From a virus, in the UHGV virus genome UHGV-1344012: a stretch of DNA of 19,383 nt; one strand, given 5' to 3'. How positions within the stretch are numbered: position 1 is the first letter of the stretch; the number at the start of each line of letters is the position of its first letter. Below the pieces are notes generated by a model. It worked only from the letters and a program-made list of their open reading frames with translations, did not search any database and was not told the origin of the DNA. Position numbers and translations under genes: made by a program. This document shows positions 5,241 through 19,362 of this stretch, one piece after another.

Positions 5241-5404
5241 TGCGTTTTACCTTTACGTTCCTGTTCCAGTTGCGCCAATGATTCGGTTAATGCTGCGAAC
5301 GTAGCTTCAAGCCTGGTAGCGACTTCGCGCATAAGCGATGCATGCTTTGGTGGCAATTCAGCCACGGAGGCAAACGCCTCCGCCACGAGTTCTTTTACCT
5401 TCAT
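5237..5404 (-). CDS. Small helical ORF (55 aa), not in the ORF track
   Basis: Hand translation of the minus strand gives MKVKELVAEAFASVAELPPKHASLMREVATRLEATFAALTESLAQLEQERKGKTQ. Its ATG overlaps the stop of the HD gene and its TGA overlaps the ATG of the downstream gene, filling an otherwise unexplained 160-nt gap in a tightly coupled operon. Confidence 0.35.
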   Translation of the reverse strand: MKVKELVAEAFASVAELPPKHASLMREVATRLEATFAALTESLAQLEQERKGKTQ

Positions 5405-5940
5405 GCGGCGCATTGACGCTGCTCCATCAACTCATTAAAGCGATTTATGAACATGCCGTATGACTGGCCTGGACGAACTGGATTGATGATGAATAGGTCC
5501 GTCGGGACAACGCCATCGAGGCATGGCCACACGGAACCTTCGTCAATCTCAAAATCGCGGCGTTCGCTGGCGAGCATCACCAGATCGGCATATTTCACTG
5601 TTGGGTGTTGCTCCGTCGGTAGGCCAAATTTCTGGCGAATAGCAGCGTCTACGCGAGCTTCGATCACCTGGTAATCCGGTAACAGGCGCTTAAGCGGTGA
5701 GGGAATATCTTGCAGGTAGGCTTCGGCGGCATCATGAAGCAGTGCTTCTAAGGCAAACTCCTGCGGAACGAGATGGCTGGTTAAAACGCTATGCTGGCCG
5801 ACGCTGTAAAACTCAGGAAGATGCCCAGCAAAACGGCAGATATGAGACAGCGCAGTAGCAATATCCTCGATGACGATATCGTCCTGTTGGATATCGAGGT
5901 AATTAAAGTGTTTGCCGGATAATGTCTGAATGTAGCTCAT
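5401..5940 (-). CDS. HD-domain phosphohydrolase (YfbR/YfdR-like 5'-deoxynucleotidase family)
   Basis: Contains an HD motif (…LLHDAAEAY…) and upstream His residues typical of HD metal-dependent phosphohydrolases. Start set at ATG 5938-5940 (MSYIQTLSGKHF…) with GGAG RBS; the track ORF begins further upstream. Confidence 0.8.
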   Translation of the reverse strand: MSYIQTLSGKHFNYLDIQQDDIVIEDIATALSHICRFAGHLPEFYSVGQHSVLTSHLVPQEFALEALLHDAAEAYLQDIPSPLKRLLPDYQVIEARVDAAIRQKFGLPTEQHPTVKYADLVMLASERRDFEIDEGSVWPCLDGVVPTDLFIINPVRPGQSYGMFINRFNELMEQRQCAA

Positions 5941-6068
5941 GGTTTTCTCCATATTGGCGCGCTGCACCGCGCAGATTTTGGTTGCACGAATCCCTCGCCG
6001 GATGGCGATAATTAATGGAATTACGCTTCAATAAATCCCCGCGGCGCCGGGGATTTAATGCAGAGCAA

Positions 6069-6896
6069 TTAGGCTTTAAAGTTACCGATGAAAGTTTCCA
6101 CTGATTCACCGTCGAACTTGCTGATCAGTAAATCGCGGAATTCGTTGGCGATTGCTTCTTCCTGGGCTTCAAGTTGGACGATGCGCAGAACAAAGCAGGG
6201 TTCATCGCTGGTCAGCAGGCTGTTACGCAAGCTAAAGCGGCGTTCGCCCAGACCTTCATACGGCACACATTTGAATTCGAACGCTACCGGCATTACGTCT
6301 TTGCTGCTTGCTTCGACGCTTTGCATGAGTGATTTTTTACCAGCGAAATCACCAGTTTCATGATCCTGCTGGGTTGCTTGTTGGATAGTGATACGACGCA
6401 CGGCCTGAGCCGCCTGAGAAATCTCCATCGTCTTACCATCAGCGTCAAACGCCAGCAGGTAATCACTCCAGTCTTCCAGCCATTCAGCGATTTGCTTTTG
6501 TTTCAGACGCTGACCATCGATCTGTAGTAGCGCGCGAAACGGGGCGGTTTTCTTCAGAGTGATTGAAGCAACGTTATCGGCGTGACCGGGGTTATCCAGG
6601 GTGCCGATGTTGAACACTGAACGGGCGGTCATGTTGTCAGCGTCAATGAAGCAACGAGCTGGCTCGCTGGCGCTGGCATAACCTTTAGAATAACGTGCGA
6701 AGTCGTCAATACTGGTTGTGGTCATTGCGCCACGAAAGCGGAAACGTTCCAGAGAAAAGCGCTCAAGGCTTTCAACGCCAGTACCCTCTGGCAGTAATGC
6801 GGTCGGGCAAGCCAGGCCATGAATATCATTCAGGTGATAACCGGAAAGGACCAGGTCTTTGACCTGCTTGAAGGTGCCGCTGTCTAACTGAGACAT
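6069..6896 (-). CDS. DUF2303 family protein (YfdQ-like prophage protein)
   Basis: 275-aa ORF whose size, position next to the HD gene and sequence character match the YfdQ/DUF2303 family of CPS-53-like prophages as recalled; not verified by search. Confidence 0.65.
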   Translation of the reverse strand: MSQLDSGTFKQVKDLVLSGYHLNDIHGLACPTALLPEGTGVESLERFSLERFRFRGAMTTTSIDDFARYSKGYASASEPARCFIDADNMTARSVFNIGTLDNPGHADNVASITLKKTAPFRALLQIDGQRLKQKQIAEWLEDWSDYLLAFDADGKTMEISQAAQAVRRITIQQATQQDHETGDFAGKKSLMQSVEASSKDVMPVAFEFKCVPYEGLGERRFSLRNSLLTSDEPCFVLRIVQLEAQEEAIANEFRDLLISKFDGESVETFIGNFKA

Positions 6897-6952: not shown

Positions 6953-7324
6953 TCACTGAGCCGCTTTAAGCTTTCCGTCCACCGCGCCGGTGATCCCGAA
7001 CAGTTGCCCCTGATCCTCCTGGAGGATGGTTAGCTTCCCGCCTTTGTTAACCCACATAGGGGTTTCGGTTGTGTCCTCTTCGGAGGCTTTACCGCGCGGG
7101 GTTGGGGTGCTGTAGTTCAGCTTGTGCTTGATCTTGACGCGCTTCTCTTCAACGGAATTACCCATACGCTCAAAATCAAAGGTGAGGACTACTTTGCCTT
7201 TGTTGCCGTTGTTCAGAACGCCAAGCGCGGTGGTGTTAAGTGCTGCCGCGATTTTGTTCATGAACACACCGGCATCCAGCTCGCCCAAAAAGTCGGGCAC
7301 TACGGTCATGCGGTCATTACTCAT
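6953..7324 (-). CDS. Hypothetical protein, first gene of the leftward early operon
   Basis: 123-aa ORF starting at ATG 7322-7324 with GAGGG RBS. The track ORF extends to 7603 only because a 10-nt N run (7347-7356) masks the upstream frame; that upstream part looks non-coding. Confidence 0.55.
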   Translation of the reverse strand: MSNDRMTVVPDFLGELDAGVFMNKIAAALNTTALGVLNNGNKGKVVLTFDFERMGNSVEEKRVKIKHKLNYSTPTPRGKASEEDTTETPMWVNKGGKLTILQEDQGQLFGITGAVDGKLKAAQ

Positions 7325-7486
7325 GGTTTTACCCTCGTTATGGCGGNNNNNNNNNNCTGCCACCGCCGAACTTTCTCCATACACAACAGAGAAGGGCACC
7401 TGCATTTGTCGGCGACTGCAATCGCTATCCTCTTGCCCGGGTGGATTGGGGAATGAGCCCGTCGCCCGGTGATGCCCTTGTCTCTT

Positions 7487-7518
7487 GTGTAAAAAAGGTG
7501 CCCACCGATGTGATGGGC
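7487..7518 (-). terminator. Candidate intrinsic terminator in the pL leader (tL-like)
   Basis: On the minus strand: GCCCAUC-ACAUC-GGUGGGC hairpin (7 bp incl. one G-U), then ACC and UUUUUU. The 3-nt spacer before the U-tract weakens the call. Confidence 0.35.
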
Positions 7519-7878
7519 AAAGACTACACACAGCAATGATGTTGTTGTGGCGGTGGTGCCTCCACCTGCCGGACCGGCCAGAACCGGCGACGCTACACCA
7601 CAAGAAACGTATTCATTTCAAAAGTTGAAATAAAAACTTGTTGGCCTCGTCACGTGCGCAGAGCCGCATTACCACAACGGTGAGAGCACTGTTTACCTGC
7701 TTTACCGCGTCGCGTCTCACGCAGTCCGATAATCAGCAATGCTCTCGCCTGTTGTGCCCTTAAAAAGCTGGCTGTCACCCTCAAGGGGAAAGAGAGCAGC
7801 CAGAACAGGGAACACGTCTTATTGCTTTGGCCTGCTTTTAACCACATCAGGCGCGGTGGTTTGGTGTCGACAGAAAAA

Positions 7879-7945
7879 AATCTAACTTAACTTAGTTTTC
7901 TGGTCAAGTGAAAACATCAAACTAAACTTAGCTTGATGCTTAGAG
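7879..7945 (-). promoter_or_regulatory. Candidate pL promoter with OL operator cluster
   Basis: Minus-strand -35 TTGACC (complement of 7902-7907), 17-bp spacer, -10 TAGATT (complement of 7879-7884). Near-palindromes with CTAAG/CTTAG half-sites overlap it (ctaacttaacttag at 7882-7895; ctaaacttag at 7922-7931). Confidence 0.45.
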
Positions 7946-7961
7946 GAAGAGTGGGAAGGGA

Positions 7962-8588
7962 TTAGAGTTCGTACTGAACGCCTTTAACAACGCCAATAAT
8001 GAGGCAGTTACCATTGATCGGGATGTTGGGGTAGCGAGGATTTAGTGGCACTAAAAATTTTTGTGGGCCATCAATGACAAGTTTTTTAACAGTCGCTTCA
8101 TTAGTGCCATCAAGACGCGCAACCACAATCTTGCCATGAAGGGGTTCGGCATCTGGATCAACAATAACGGTTGCCCCTTCAGGGATTGTTGGGAGGCCAT
8201 TTGGATTGGTCATTGAATCCCCTTTGACCTCTAAAGCGAACGAGTTATCCCCAATGCGAAGTGATGTTTCAACCCATTTATCGACATCACTGAACAAATC
8301 AGCGGCTTTACATTCCGTGAACTGCCCAGCTTGAACCCATGAAATCACCGGGACACGCCTCATTTTAGTTATGAGGGTGCCTTCAAATTCAGTGCCGTAA
8401 AGAATGTAATCTATTGATGTGTTAAAGAATTTCGCCAGCTTAACCAGCGATTCACCGTTTGGGATATTCACATCCTTTTCCCAATAACCCACCGCTACGT
8501 CACTAACCCCGCAGAACTTACCCAGTTCTTTTTGAGAGGTTCTTGTAACCCTACGTAGGGCTTTAATGCGCTGACCAACCGTTTCCAT
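7962..8588 (-). CDS. cI: CI-type prophage repressor (P22 C2-like; N-terminal HTH, C-terminal S24 LexA-like peptidase)
   Basis: 208-aa ORF with an N-terminal HTH (…QKELGKFCGVSDVAVGYWEK…) and C-terminal S24 catalytic dyad context (…EVKGDSMTNP… Ser; …EATVKKLV… Lys). Divergent from cro across an operator-rich intergenic region. Confidence 0.9.
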   Translation of the reverse strand: METVGQRIKALRRVTRTSQKELGKFCGVSDVAVGYWEKDVNIPNGESLVKLAKFFNTSIDYILYGTEFEGTLITKMRRVPVISWVQAGQFTECKAADLFSDVDKWVETSLRIGDNSFALEVKGDSMTNPNGLPTIPEGATVIVDPDAEPLHGKIVVARLDGTNEATVKKLVIDGPQKFLVPLNPRYPNIPINGNCLIIGVVKGVQYEL

Positions 8589-8610
8589 GAAAGCACCAAG
8601 TTTAAAAAAG

Positions 8611-8681
8611 ACTAAGTAATCTTAGTTTTTATTGACCAAAGTTAGATTGGTTATTAATATCTAACCAAACTTAGCTAAGGA
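8611..8681 (+). promoter_or_regulatory. OR operator cluster with candidate pR promoter and cro RBS
   Basis: Perfect palindrome ACTAAGTAATCTTAGT (8611-8626); -35 TTGACC (8632-8637), 17-bp spacer, -10 TAATAT (8655-8660); inverted repeat GTTAGAT…ATCTAAC (8641-8665); palindrome CTTAGCTAAG (8670-8679); AGGAGG RBS before cro. Confidence 0.55.
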
Positions 8682-8687
8682 GGCTTC

Positions 8688-8879
8688 ATGACAACCGACG
8701 AGATTGAACAACATTTCGGCAGCACTGAAAAAGTTGCCGAATTTTTTGGCATCACCAGTGAGGCCGTTTACCAGTGGCGTAACCGCCCCGCTGCTGAAGC
8801 TGCGTATCGAACTGCTGGTGAACTGGAATTTAACCCAGAACGTTATGGCAAGAATACATCGCCAAGCGATCAGAAATAA
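8688..8879 (+). CDS. cro: Cro-like repressor (P22 Cro family)
   Basis: 63-aa ORF immediately right of OR with AGGAGG RBS. Sequence (…IEQHFGSTEKVAEFFGITSEAVYQW…) resembles P22 Cro as recalled. Confidence 0.8.
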   Translation: MTTDEIEQHFGSTEKVAEFFGITSEAVYQWRNRPAAEAAYRTAGELEFNPERYGKNTSPSDQK

Positions 8880-8901: not shown

Positions 8902-9450
8902 GTGGGTATAGAACCTGAATGGAAAGTAGATAAGCAGCCAGCCTGGCTGGTGGCCGCAATCAAAAAAACGATCACCGAGCTGCCTGGCGGATATTCAGAA
9001 GCTGCTGAGTGGTTGGGTGTGACCGAGAACGCGCTGTTTAACCGGCTGCGTACCGATGGCGATCAGATCTTCCCGCTCGGTTGGGCGATGGTGCTTCAAC
9101 GTGCTGGTGGTTCAAACCACATAGCGAACGCTATTGCACGTCACTCGAACGGTGTTTTCGTGCCATTGGCTGACGTTGAAGAAATAGAGAACGGTGACAT
9201 CAACCAGCGTCTTATGGAGTCAGTGGAGTGGATCGGCAGGCATTCGCAATACGTTCGCAAAGCTACCGCTGACGGCGTTATTGATGCTCAGGAACGCGCC
9301 CAGATTGAAGAGAACAGCTATCAGGTGATGGCTAAGTGGCAGGAACATTTGACGCTGCTTTTCCGTGTGTTTTGTGCGCCGGAAAAAGGTGACGCCCGCG
9401 AGTGTGCAGCTCCGGGCGTCGTGGCAGACAAATCTTGTATGGAGAAGTAA
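8902..9450 (+). CDS. CII-like regulatory protein (Phage_CP76-like, tentative)
   Basis: 182-aa ORF starting at GTG 8902-8904, 8 nt after a GGGAGG RBS and just after the cro stop. The track's ATG at 8704 would overlap cro in another frame. CII-like assignment rests on position and recalled family resemblance. Confidence 0.5.
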   Translation: MGIEPEWKVDKQPAWLVAAIKKTITELPGGYSEAAEWLGVTENALFNRLRTDGDQIFPLGWAMVLQRAGGSNHIANAIARHSNGVFVPLADVEEIENGDINQRLMESVEWIGRHSQYVRKATADGVIDAQERAQIEENSYQVMAKWQEHLTLLFRVFCAPEKGDARECAAPGVVADKSCMEK

Positions 9451-13041: not shown

Positions 13042-14033
13042 GAGCTCTGCTTACCCCCGAGATCGCCCATCGTATGGGGATTGTGCTGTTCCGTCCCGGT
13101 ACGGAACTGATGCACCTCTTCATGCGTGGTCGCGTTCTGCTCGAGCCTGAACCAGAAGAAATGGCGTCATTCAGTACCGGGGCTGTTCCGGCAGCCATTC
13201 AGCCGCTAGCTGATGATCCGGTAATGCGTCAGGTCTTCGAGAATGAGAGGGTTATTCAGCGTGCCGGTGGGCTTCCTTCCCTTGAGCAATGGTTGAGTAA
13301 TCGGTTTGAATGCCAGTGGCCACATTCAACGTGGCACGACAAGAACTTCACAACAATGCGGCACCCACCAGGAAGTATTCGCCTGTGCTGGCATTGCGAT
13401 CACACTTTGTCGGGGCAGCATACCGAACAGCTTGCAGGTATAGCGGCCGGAAACCTGGTATCCTGGATTCTGGAAGTCATTCGGCGTGATTCTGGTTTTC
13501 CCGAGTCGCATATCCTGACGCTTCCTGAACTGTGCTGGTGGATGGTCAGAAACGACCTGGCTGATGTTATTCCGGAAAGCGTTGCGCACAAAGGGTTGCG
13601 CCTTCCGGATGAGAAGATCCGTTCTGTCATGAGGGAAAGCGACATAGTGCCTTCCTCGTCAGCAACCAGACTCGTGCAGGAGAAGGCGAAGAAGATCCTC
13701 ACGCTCTCTGTTGATCCGGAGTCGCCAGAGTCTTTTATGCTCAGGCCAAAACGTCGCCGCTGGATAAATGAGACGTACACCCGCTGGGTTAAAACACAAC
13801 CCTGTGAGTGTTGCCGACGGCCAGCAGATGATCCGCACCATATCGTAGGGCACGGTATGGGTGGTACAGCAACAAAAGCCCATGACCTCTTCGTGATCCC
13901 TCTGTGCAGAGAGTGCCACGACGAGTTACACGCCGATGTACCAGCATTCGAGCAGAAGCATGGTACGCAGCTTGAGCTGCTACTGCGTTTTATTGATCGA
14001 GCACTGGCGATCGGCGTAATTGCGACAGCTTAA
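13038..14033 (+). CDS. DUF968 family protein (YdfU-like), Cys/His-rich C-terminus
   Basis: 331-aa ORF starting at GTG 13038 (GTGA overlap with the upstream stop; AGGGGG RBS). C-terminal Cys/His cluster (…CECCRRPADDPHHIVGHG…CRECHDELH…) and position just upstream of Q match YdfU-like proteins as recalled. Confidence 0.6.
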   Translation: MRALLTPEIAHRMGIVLFRPGTELMHLFMRGRVLLEPEPEEMASFSTGAVPAAIQPLADDPVMRQVFENERVIQRAGGLPSLEQWLSNRFECQWPHSTWHDKNFTTMRHPPGSIRLCWHCDHTLSGQHTEQLAGIAAGNLVSWILEVIRRDSGFPESHILTLPELCWWMVRNDLADVIPESVAHKGLRLPDEKIRSVMRESDIVPSSSATRLVQEKAKKILTLSVDPESPESFMLRPKRRRWINETYTRWVKTQPCECCRRPADDPHHIVGHGMGGTATKAHDLFVIPLCRECHDELHADVPAFEQKHGTQLELLLRFIDRALAIGVIATA

Positions 14034-14049
14034 GAAGTATGGAGACCGT

Positions 14050-14880
14050 ATGAATCTGGACAATGTTTTAAAGTTTTTTGCGCCTAAAGGCATGCACATC
14101 TCAGATACCAGCAGAGCGACAGCAAGTGAGCAACTTACTGTGACTGATGTAATGGCTGCACTGGGGATGACTCAGGCTGATGCAGGCATCGGGCTGGCAA
14201 TGTTTCTAGGTAAAGCTGGTATCAGCAGCAAGGACAGGGAGATGTCAATTGCCTGGCTAACGGAGTACGCGAAAGAGCATGCGCCCATGGCTATTCGTAA
14301 AGCATCAGGGAAAAAGTTTCCCCTCTGCATGCGTATCCTTGCCCGGTTTGCCTATAACGATTATTCCTCATCAGCAGCTGATTGTGTGGCATGCCCAAAA
14401 TGTAGTGGTAAAGGGTTGCTTACAACCACTAAAACCGTGACTAAAAGCCATTACACAATGCGATTGCCACAATGGGCAAAAGACCTGAGACAGTCACCAT
14501 CTGACTTTGAGGTAAAGCGAGAAGTAACTGACTCCGAGCAAAGTTTATGTTCGCGATGCCATGGTACCGGAAAGTTAAGTAAGCGATGCCAGTGTGGCGG
14601 AACTGGCAAGACGGTTGACCGTAAAGCGACAGAACTGCAGGGCGTACCAGTTTACAAAGAATGTAAGCGCTGCGAAGGGCGGGGATACAGCAGGCCAAAA
14701 TCATCGGTTGCCTATCGAGGTGTTTTTTCTGAGTTGCCGAGTCTGCCTGACCGAACGTGGCGTTATAGCTGGAAACCATTCTATGAAAGCCTGGTGACCA
14801 AATGTTTCCAGGAGGAGAGTTATTCAAGCTCTCAACTGAATCGGGTGACTAAAAGTGAAGATGTGATAAATATCGCGTAA
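14050..14880 (+). CDS. Late-gene antiterminator Q-like protein (phage 82 Q / QuuQ-type, Zn-finger-like), copy 1
   Basis: Start set at ATG 14050 (MNLDNVLKFF…) with GGAG RBS, by alignment to the paralog at 17269. Cys-rich motifs (CPKCSGKG; CSRCHGTGK…CQCGGTGK; CKRCEGRG). Followed immediately by a consensus-like promoter and intrinsic terminator, the classic Q-pR'-tR' arrangement. Confidence 0.7.
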   Translation: MNLDNVLKFFAPKGMHISDTSRATASEQLTVTDVMAALGMTQADAGIGLAMFLGKAGISSKDREMSIAWLTEYAKEHAPMAIRKASGKKFPLCMRILARFAYNDYSSSAADCVACPKCSGKGLLTTTKTVTKSHYTMRLPQWAKDLRQSPSDFEVKREVTDSEQSLCSRCHGTGKLSKRCQCGGTGKTVDRKATELQGVPVYKECKRCEGRGYSRPKSSVAYRGVFSELPSLPDRTWRYSWKPFYESLVTKCFQEESYSSSQLNRVTKSEDVINIA

Positions 14881-17268: not shown

Positions 17269-18101
17269 ATGAAACTTGAAGCTTCACTAAAACACTTTAG
17301 CCCTCAGGGTATGCACATCAGCGACGACGTGAAAGGAACCTCTCCGGACCGCCTTACAGGAACAGATGTAATGGCGGCAATTGGCACCACCANNNNNNNN
17401 NNNNNNNNNNNNNNNNNNNNNNNNNNNNNNNNNNNATCAGCAAAACGGATGAACAGCTCGCAGTTCAGGCGCTGGCGCGATATGCGATGGATGTCGCACC
17501 GAAGAATGTTCGCAAAGCAGCTGGTGGGCAGTTCGGATGGTGCATGCAGATGTTGGCACAATTTGCCTTTGCTGATTATTCACGTTCGGCGGCTACAAGC
17601 GTGACGTGTCACAGCTGCAGTGGTACCGGACGAACAACCCGCGAACAGATTACCCGCAAGGTTTCGTACCCATGGGGTAAAGCTCCATACTGGGCCTGCC
17701 GCTCTCGTGCTGTTCGACCGTCTGACTGGGAGCAGTGGATGGAGGTAACAGAGGTTGTACCGGCGGTCTGTGATGCTTGCGAAGGCAAGGGAACGATCAG
17801 CGCCCGTTGTCGTTGCGGCGGTAAAGGCGAGGTTCTAGACCGCAAGGCCACAAGCGAGCGCGGCGCGCCGGTGTTTAAAACCTGCGAGCGCTGCAGCGGA
17901 AATGGATTTTCTGCGGTGCCGTCTACCGCAGCCTATAAAGTGATACTGAAGCGCGTTCCGGATCTGCACGTCAGAACATGGACTCGCAACTGGAAACCGT
18001 TTCTTGAGGCGCTGGTAAGCATTTGTCAGCAGGAGGAGGGAAACGCCGCAAGAGAATTTCAATCTGCAACCAGTTTAGGCGAAGAAGGTGACGAAATTTA
18101 G
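17269..18101 (+). CDS. Second Q-like antiterminator paralog (interrupted by a 43-nt N run)
   Basis: N-terminus (MKLEASLKHFSPQGMHISD…TGTDVMAAIG) and C-terminal Cys-rich region (CHSCSGTG…; CDACEGKG…CRCGGKG…; CERCSGNG; …RTWTRNWKPF…) align with Q1. Span is not a multiple of 3, so the N run (17393-17435) does not reflect true length. GAGGG RBS before ATG 17269. Confidence 0.65.
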
Positions 18102-19285: not shown

Positions 19286-19362
19286 GGCCCTTTAGCTCAG
19301 TTGGTTAGAGCGTGCGACTCATAATCGCCCGGTCGCTGGTTCAAGTCCAGCAAGGGCCACCA
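19286..19362 (+). tRNA. tRNA with CAU anticodon (Ile2-lysidine type or Met; ileX/ileZ-like)
   Basis: Cloverleaf readable by eye: acceptor GGCCCTT/AAGGGCC, D-arm GCTC-AGTTGGTTA-GAGC, anticodon loop CTCATAA (CAT), T-arm GCTGG-TTCAAGT-CCAGC, discriminator A and encoded CCA. A candidate promoter (TTGCAA 19248-19253, 17-bp spacer, TATCTT) and GC-rich discriminator lie upstream. Confidence 0.85.

Follow-up and report, generated by a model that had tools for sequence, protein, structure and literature searches.

A predicted immediate-early RprA-mimic small RNA on an STnc100-type scaffold at the N position of a lambdoid prophage

Results

The DNA analyzed here (herein the window; the whole 19,383-nucleotide [nt] stretch of the virus genome UHGV-1344012) is a lambdoid prophage in which 637 base pairs (bp) separate the stop codon of a cI-like repressor gene from yfdP, the first leftward gene. 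Within this gap a pL-like promoter fronts ∼550 nt that lack a conserved open reading frame (ORF), at the position where lambda encodes N. The original prediction, made from the letters of the window, described a leader of about 640 bp with no credible ORF and no N-like gene, faced by a well-formed pL and crossed by a hairpin with a U-tract, and suggested either put-like antitermination in cis or another untranslated regulatory RNA. The observation holds, and of the two suggestions the second is supported, whereas put-like antitermination is not borne out: the gap contains a conserved, structured, non-coding RNA, and the hairpin is the terminator of a module resembling a small regulatory RNA (sRNA). 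With moderate confidence, and on the basis of sequence comparison, we interpret the gap as a non-coding RNA gene for an immediate-early, terminator-defined, predicted sRNA that mimics the host sRNA RprA. The coordinates of all features are collected in Table 1.

Near its 3′ end, the leader carries a stretch (herein the seed; AUUGCUGUGUGUAGUCUUUGCCCAUC) that is identical to Escherichia coli K-12 rprA in 26 of 26 nt, with bases ∼7537 through 7520 single stranded. The 3′ end of the seed is overlapped by an intrinsic terminator with an 8-bp stem (UGCCCAUC/GGUGGGCA; 7519..7499), a 5-nt loop, and the tail CCTTTTTTAC, in which a run of six U residues is set 2 nt (CC) off the stem. As a bare consensus match, a hairpin with a U-run is not significant; folding gives dG −18.6 kcal/mol (z −3.3), and scans of the left operon show no other strong intrinsic terminator on the minus strand. 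The hairpin is a homolog of the RprA terminator, from which it differs in its loop and in the 2-nt displacement of the U-run. RNase E processing of RprA yields RprAproc, the last 47 nt of the RNA, which begins AAUUGCUG and suffices for one of the regulatory activities of RprA, probably by an indirect route (PMC9262595). The identity between phage and host begins one base inside RprAproc and continues into an analogous hairpin and U-tail. In a permissive Rfam scan of the window, RprA was the sole notable family (41.5 bits, 7627..7490 on the minus strand; E value 4e-4 to 1.6e-3); at gathering thresholds, the tRNA at the window end was the sole match in the whole window.

The exact RprA 23-mer is present in at least 120 IMG/VR viral contigs. 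Among the matches listed, a GCCC...GGGC-type hairpin and a T-run come after every copy, the stems and loops differ in a compensatory manner, and 33 unrelated classes of upstream sequence precede the 23-mer; many of these classes keep CCCCUGAAUCAUCC immediately before it, which resembles CCCCUGAGUG of RprA. Of the 89 loci with sufficient flanking DNA, 67 have a co-oriented cI/LexA-like gene no more than 2.2 kb upstream (34 of 51 outside the window's own class), and none has such a gene on the opposite strand. These upstream genes include immunity types that are only 25 to 47% identical. Because the repressor gene is co-oriented and upstream in so many loci, the RprA module is a recurrent early-left element situated soon after pL. 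The window's class was found in Kluyvera, Enterobacter, Klebsiella, Raoultella, Scandinavium, Silvania, Buttiauxella, and Pseudocitrobacter. Complete E. coli genomes hold the exact module infrequently, in ∼160 places besides chromosomal rprA. As the 23-mer is constant while stems, loops, terminators, and upstream contexts vary, the comparison indicates selection on the seed and not on the hairpin. In many loci outside the window's class (class A), a conserved protein of 48 to 49 residues with a C-terminal hydrophobic segment (MKPEH[FL]HRLTGRDVL...) is encoded directly after the RprA-like terminator (for example, L033 3601 through 3750 and L013 3379 through 3525).

Upstream of the seed lies a 135-nt structured domain (M3), one of five leader blocks that we defined by BLAST of the leader against all fetched loci. 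Its 7- to 8-bp closing helix, P1 (GUUGUGG(U)/(G)CCACAAC), encloses three hairpins and an internal helix around a variable hairpin (P1 through P5 in all), and a pseudoknot pairs GGCCA (7645 through 7641) with UGGCC in the P4 loop. Covariation across relatives, a check named with the original prediction, is found in the helices and in the pseudoknot. In an alignment of 35 sequences analyzed with RNAalifold, pairing holds in 99.2% of cells and compensatory change is seen at 13 of the 27 pairs; sliding the pairing partners by one to three columns reduces the paired cells to 30 to 52%. This alignment was fitted to a covariance model, which favors structure; a MAFFT alignment had already given the covariation of P3 and P4, and the pseudoknot was found independently. 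Every variable helix is backed by covariation: P5 changes from GGUGG/CCACC to CCGGG/CCCGG around a constant AGGCA loop, and the pseudoknot changes from GGCCA/UGGCC to AGCCA/UGGCU in nine sequences. The pattern of substitutions indicates that the M3 scaffold is a real RNA structure.

Two other identities for parts of this region were considered and rejected. A weak AgvB match (14.9 bits) at the RprA-like place raised mimicry of GcvB targets through CACAACA, which is out, as CCACAAC forms the paired 3′ strand of P1. M3 also has a cloverleaf-like topology (a 7-bp closing helix, UA, and four arms), and ARAGORN calls no tRNA in the scaffold or in 11 related loci except the tRNA-Arg that adjoins the scaffold in Lastavirus ZX1. 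Minihelices resembling tRNA T-arms (e.g., GUCCGUUCAAUUCGGAC and GGUUCGAUUCCGG) precede the scaffold in L155, L089, and L144, and precede the RprA core in L012/L086 and L034; ARAGORN made no tRNA call in L012, L034, L086, L089, or L144.

R1, a covariance model that we built for M3 from the window's class, finds one M3 copy in the whole window and matches Shigella phage SfV (51.1 bits), locus L059 (50.0 bits), and the e14 prophage (42.3 bits), with E values of about 1e-11 to 1e-12. The same matched regions score against the Rfam family STnc100 (RF02076) with 39.5 bits in SfV, 48.9 bits in L059, and 29.2 bits in e14, against a gathering score of 47; L059 is therefore a gathering-level STnc100 member, and its seed is the exact RprA 23-mer. 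The STnc100 consensus has the same P1, internal hairpins, and a CCGGGAGGCACCCGG hairpin, beyond which come a single-stranded stretch and a terminator. STnc100 is a prophage sRNA without known function (PMC12370729). It shares a common fold, with a different seed, with PasD (Storz laboratory preprint, bioRxiv 10.64898/2026.05.13.724894), an Hfq-dependent prophage sRNA of enteropathogenic E. coli that has been detected by Northern blot and, with many partners, by RIL-seq (PMC8550237; bioRxiv 10.64898/2026.05.13.724894). The window element shares with both the fold of the 5′ domain (P1 closing a multi-helix junction, internal hairpins, and P5 with its AGGCA loop), the order of structured domain (7678 through 7544), single-stranded seed (7537 through 7520), and terminator (7519 through 7489), and residence in a lambdoid prophage. 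It differs in being too divergent for the Rfam model, in carrying the seed of RprA instead of the canonical STnc100 or PasD seed, and in lying right after pL, at the N position, instead of in the late region near Q, stx, or lysis genes. Expression and Hfq dependence have been shown for PasD, whereas the window element is known from its sequence. These comparisons identify it as a distant STnc100-type scaffold joined to an RprA seed.

The relatives of the scaffold are arranged in a similar way. In SfV, M3 takes the same leader position upstream of the yfdP homolog, in the order M1-like block, M3, UUUAU-GCUGUGUGUAGUC, long hairpin, CUUUUU, M5, yfdP. At least 120 further viral contigs contain the 5′ end of the SfV-type M3; among the 120 matches listed, GCUGUGUGUAGUC follows at a fixed distance in 89 (129 nt in 87 of them), with a terminator that is longer than that of the window and quite unlike it. 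In the remainder, variant seeds, a tRNA-like sequence, or other modules are found. The SfV-type composite is present in 2,115 of 5,426 complete E. coli genomes (39%). In E. coli K-12 MG1655 (L268, NC_000913.3), the e14 composite consists of an M1-like block, an STnc100-type scaffold, the GCUGUGUGUAGUC seed, and a terminator (about 5190 through 5460 of the locus, minus strand; about 1201190 through 1201460 of the chromosome). It lies under the doubtful coding sequence (CDS) ymfH (b1142), whose GTG start falls in the first helix of the scaffold; the ymfH ORF is probably an erroneous call that overlies an sRNA gene, and a literature search on ymfH as an sRNA found nothing relevant. The seed and terminator of e14 (L268 5201 through 5254, minus strand) and of SfV (L003 2446 through 2500) give sub-threshold matches to DicF (28.5 bits with an E value of 4e-4, and 15.7 bits, respectively). 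Since this long terminator resembles that of DicF, the comparison suggests that the seeds and terminators of prophage sRNAs are shuffled as cassettes. In the E. coli P1-like plasmid L146, the scaffold occurs twice (1191 through 1296 and 3004 through 3141) around a tRNA cluster; a Tad2 anti-Thoeris gene lies downstream. The svsR RNA of prophage NC-SV was considered as the same element and discarded, as it lies at the 3′ end of cI (PMC12803456).

The pL-like promoter (TTGACC, 17-bp spacer, TAGATT) bears out the original reading of a well-formed pL that faces the leader. Its hexamers alone are at chance level (2 found in the region vs. 1.9 expected), and the call gains its support from two other observations. 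A family of four operator-like repeats (tCTAACttAACTTAGtt), 69 to 100% identical to the reference copy, places two copies so that they flank or overlap this promoter and the other two at the divergent pR/pRM promoters. In addition, phages with unrelated immunity regions are homologous to the window from 7861/7860 onward, just 3′ of the −10 hexamer.

The leader that follows is strongly mosaic among homologs in the BLAST comparison. M1, its first 32 nt, is conserved across immunity types and present in SfV and e14; with 97% identity, it lies directly 5′ of the RprA core in L029, L046, L105, and L112. We discarded M1 as a boxB-like or unusually stable hairpin, its fold being no stronger than that of shuffled sequence (z +0.26). 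M2 is a variable, indel-prone spacer. It contains an extra hairpin (CUGGCUG...CAGCCAG, then CUUUUUAA; about 7803 through 7757, minus strand) that folds no better than shuffled sequence (z −0.7 and −1.8) and that, with its U-run, may be a weak additional terminator. M5, beyond the terminator, forms the long-hairpin 5′ untranslated region (UTR) of yfdP (dG −50.9 kcal/mol, z −1.95). Part of it (7498 through 7435) is kept upstream of yfdP-like genes in SfV, SfIV, Stx phages, and mEp460, and the SfV copy (L003, about 2505 through 2600) bears compensatory differences.

Protein coding finds little support in the leader. The two longest ORFs are broken in most homologs, the 65-residue ORF (7847..7650) by stops in 21 of 22 distinct homologs and the 71-residue ORF (7536..7321) in 13 of 30, whereas all 42 homologs of the control gene yfdP keep an intact frame. 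ORFs of 31 to 35 residues are intact in a few close homologs, divergent homologs being too few to judge, and one of them (ORF35) falls within the covarying helices of M3. None of the leader ORFs is arginine rich or N-like, and among the 29 larger window ORFs scanned, from the left and right operons, no antitermination-N family was detected, the only such factors being Q-like proteins. The absence of an N-like gene noted in the original prediction thus holds. The run of 10 N at 7347 through 7356, suspected of hiding a small N-like ORF, is an inserted mask: in the near-identical contig L015, ggcggtggcag directly abuts ccgccataacg at this position, with zero bases between them.

The put sites of phages HK022 (putL and putR) and HK639 (putL only) lie downstream of early promoters and upstream of terminators; they act on RNA polymerase through its β′ zinc-binding domain and suppress termination in cis. 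The HK639 site is reportedly the subject of King et al. (2011). A covariance model of the three sites (R2), which scores 47 to 96 bits on true put sites, reaches at best 9.9 bits (E value 0.5, at 406 through 450) over the whole window with filters off and finds nothing in the leader, from which the conserved two-stem pattern (CGAACGGC..GUCGG..GGCGGG..AGGAUGA..CAAU) is absent. Matches to boxA (CGCTCTTTA-like, one mismatch) number 5 in the window vs. 8 expected by chance, with none in 7325 through 7961, and the pR operon has no second copy of the leader's structured RNA. The search for boxA or put-like stem-loops, with its counterpart beyond pR, therefore speaks against the put-like reading of this leader. 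True put RNAs (47 to 75 bits) do occur in 19 of 100 loci with the RprA core (L010, L013, L022, L025, L030, L031, L035, L038, L043, L045, L047, L070, L071, L073, L088, L092, L093, L097, and L104; unannotated IMG/VR contigs), on the same strand as the RprA-like terminator and 200 to 1,400 nt upstream of it, the loci reading cI, pL, put, small ORF, terminator. This suggests that put-type antitermination is much commoner than the two characterized phages would indicate. In these sister phages the shared module is the terminator that a put-modified polymerase must pass, and in the window's class the slot held by put is filled by M1 through M3.

The remainder of the window has the gene order listed in Table 1. 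The cI-like and cro-like ORFs were left out of the protein-family scans and take their names from the ORF list and the annotation of the close relative phage LLS. No structural genes lie between the second Q-like gene and the tRNA-Met at the window end; with its two Q-like genes, the window has the appearance of a truncated or recombined prophage, or of two neighboring remnants.

Table 1. Positions of the leader elements and of the genes around them in the window
Feature	Position	Strand or direction	Basis or remark
Integrase gene	74-1387	leftward	PHROGs scan
Excisionase gene		leftward	PHROGs scan
Deoxynucleoside monophosphate phosphatase gene	5401-5967	leftward	PHROGs scan; end of leftward early operon
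yfdQ	6069-6896	leftward	PHROGs scan; leftward early operon
yfdP family (phrog_204)	6953-7324	-	PHROGs E value 1e-41, LLS annotation; first leftward gene
Run of 10 N, inserted mask	7347-7356		near-identical contig L015
M5, long-hairpin 5′ UTR of yfdP	7490-7357 (block 7498-7357)	-	ACACAAGAGACAAGGGCA.../...UGCCCUUCUCUGUUGUGU
Intrinsic terminator	7519-7489	-	scan and fold
RprA-identical seed	7537-7512	-	alignment
M3, structured domain	core 7678-7544 (block 7690-7540)	-	P1 through P5 and pseudoknot
M2, variable spacer	7829-7691	-	replaced or deleted in many homologs
M1, first 32 nt of transcribed module	7861-7830	-	hairpin AACCAC-CGCGCCUGAU-GUGGUU, then AAAAGCAGGC
pL-like sigma-70 promoter	7907..7879	-	consensus scan
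Operator-like repeats at pL	7874-7899, 7910-7935		repeat search
Operator-like repeats at pR/pRM	8604-8629, 8653-8678		repeat search
cI-like repressor gene	7962-8588	-	ORF list, LLS annotation
cro-like gene	8688-8879		ORF list, LLS annotation
cII, then O-like replication gene	8902-9450 (cII)		PHROGs scan
Complete Q-like gene, then pR′-like promoter and terminator	14020-14880 (Q-like gene)		PHROGs scan
Second Q-like gene, after lysis genes	17269-18101		PHROGs scan; split into two ORFs
tRNA-Met	19286-19362		window end

Discussion

The hairpin in the path of pL most likely marks where a viral mimic of a host regulator ends. In the scheme that we favor, the repressor would leave its operators and the pL-like promoter would start a transcript at ∼7872 that runs through the M1 hairpin, the M2 spacer, and the pseudoknotted M3 scaffold. 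Six bases past M3, it would expose a single-stranded stretch corresponding to the 5′ part of processed RprA and would then end at its own hairpin and U-run at ∼7490, giving a primary RNA of ∼380 nt. Processing of the RNase E type could release a species of ∼190 nt (scaffold, seed, and terminator) or one of ∼50 nt resembling RprAproc. A product that combines a seed with a terminator hairpin and U-tail would be built like an Hfq-dependent sRNA and would act in trans on whatever processed RprA acts on, so that a mimic of a host envelope-stress regulator would be made at the very start of lytic development. The STnc100-type scaffold supports an sRNA reading because members of this family are validated Hfq-dependent sRNAs. 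Transcripts that read through would express yfdP, yfdQ, and the remaining genes of the left operon, and the 2-nt offset of the U-run suggests that termination may be leaky. The RNA may also be made in lysogens from pRM transcripts, because terminator scans place no terminator between the cI stop and the leader; SfV has a terminator after cI, so this route would not be general.

Relative to RprA itself, the window element has an STnc100-type scaffold in place of the 5′ stem-loop and rpoS-pairing region, and a repressor-controlled phage promoter where that of rprA is RcsB/CpxR dependent. The host gene belongs to the core genome (ydiK-rprA-ydiL), whereas the phage element sits in a prophage immunity region behind the operator-controlled pL. 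RprA and ricI are said to be the subject of Papenfort et al. (2015). Literature searches for an RprA-like or RprA-homologous phage RNA found nothing relevant, and neither the 2026 preprint on STnc100 and PasD nor the other papers found mention RprA in connection with them. What is new here is the RprA(proc)-identical seed and the immediate-early pL position on a known type of prophage sRNA, STnc100.

Several observations weigh against this interpretation. The RprA score of the window (41.5 bits) is below the gathering score of 70 (RF00034), and the rpoS-, csgD-, and hdeD-pairing segment of RprA (CCCCUGAGUGAAACAACGAAUU, nt ∼31 through 62) is not kept in the window, where only CAACAAC remains. 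The direct targets of RprAproc are not known (PMC9262595), and a search within the window for sites complementary to the seed found only the element's own gene. Rfam gives no STnc100 report for the window even at E values up to 10, which makes the link between the two transitive. M3 also lies directly before yfdP, with neither seed nor terminator, in Kluyvera (L134 and L138), and it ends 2 nt before tRNA-Arg(UCU), beside an integrase gene, in Lastavirus ZX1 (L147 1511 through 1645) and in LASTA (L145 2399 through 2526); scaffold and seed therefore need not act as one unit. Finally, a terminator that is shared so widely could be a recombination linker between phage modules.

A related alternative, which we consider doubtful, is that the leader works purely in cis, as an attenuator and stabilizing 5′ UTR for the operon of yfdP, and that its RprA-like part is a terminator cassette spread by recombination. 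The strong mosaicism of the leader fits such a role, as do the long hairpin of M5 next to the yfdP ribosome-binding site, the position of the module at junctions of unrelated sequences, and the cassette shuffling seen in the DicF-like terminator of SfV and e14. A cassette of this kind, however, predicts that the hairpin and U-run are kept, yet 17 single-stranded bases upstream are kept while the stems vary, and the identity to the active processed form of a host sRNA is left unexplained.

It is unlikely, in our judgment, that M3, alone or with M1, is a cis-acting processive antiterminator, an analog of put that replaces N. The one line of evidence is positional analogy: M3 occupies the slot between pL and the terminator that put takes in sister loci. 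The phage lacks N, M3 is strongly constrained in structure and always co-oriented with its neighbors, and put-like antitermination was raised, without a test, by Casjens and colleagues for LLS (PMC12315714). With the put sites of HK022 and HK639 the leader shares an untranslated structured RNA just past pL and before the first terminator of an N-less lambdoid phage, the same terminator module following true put in the sister phages. Against this, M3 matches put in neither sequence nor structure, a single copy is present with none in the pR operon, and binding to polymerase is known for put only. The scaffold is also found where no terminator follows (before yfdP in the Kluyvera loci and before tRNA-Arg in ZX1 and LASTA), its relatives STnc100 and PasD act in trans as Hfq-dependent sRNAs, and there is just one strong terminator to pass in the left operon, for which simple leakiness, given the CC offset of the U-run, suggests itself as a sufficient alternative. 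We would give little credence to the larger proposal, in which M3 represents a new class of cis-acting antiterminator RNA that takes the place of put in one large branch of N-less lambdoid phages, and the leader has a dual output. Under that proposal, polymerase without the folded scaffold would stop and release the RprA mimic, whereas polymerase with the scaffold would read into the early genes; if true, it would give a function to STnc100, PasD, and the ymfH region of e14.

Improbable, too, is a role as a competitor or decoy that dampens the RprA response by competing with the host RNA for Hfq, RNase E, or a partner RNA common to both. The phage RNA and RprA share their Hfq-binding and RNase E-proximal region, the prophage anti-sRNAs AgvB and AsxR set a precedent (PMC4104026), and RprAproc is itself thought to act indirectly, possibly by titrating another RNA (PMC9262595); the phage sequence, though, has the same sense as RprA, so it could not sponge RprA by pairing. 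An overlooked small protein, N-like or other, is highly improbable: several ORFs of 31 to 35 residues are unbroken in the few close homologs and the homologous region is called as CDS elsewhere (as ymfH in K-12 and as four hypothetical proteins in phage Eeyore), but the two longest frames are disrupted in most homologs, ORF35 lies within covarying helices, the N-run conceals no sequence, and no leader ORF is arginine rich or N-like.

Among known systems, lambda encodes N where the window carries a non-coding RNA, with neither an N-like ORF nor a boxA in its leader. StxS, the short pR′-tR′ transcript of Stx phages, resembles the favored RprA-mimic sRNA in that an early-terminated phage operon transcript is a regulatory sRNA, with readthrough or antitermination leading into the operon (PMC7547250); StxS differs in its promoter (pR′, not pL) and its sequence, and it is not known to mimic a host sRNA. 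AgvB and AsxR likewise are short RNAs of prophages that combine variable 5′ ends with a conserved 3′ terminator module and interfere with networks of core-genome sRNAs (PMC4104026). They mimic the targets of host sRNAs and are complementary to them, whereas the window element copies the host sRNA itself.

The finding links STnc100, PasD, and the doubtful K-12 gene ymfH of e14 and poses a question that is testable in E. coli K-12. It also narrows the search for early antitermination of the LLS type, with put in a fifth of the related loci scanned and a structured RNA in its slot in the window's class. Should the RNA prove to be expressed and active, the first lytic transcript of many enterobacterial prophages would carry a copy of the active processed end of RprA. 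This would be host-sRNA mimicry, unlike the target mimicry of AgvB and AsxR, and the phage copy would offer a second route to the direct targets of RprAproc.

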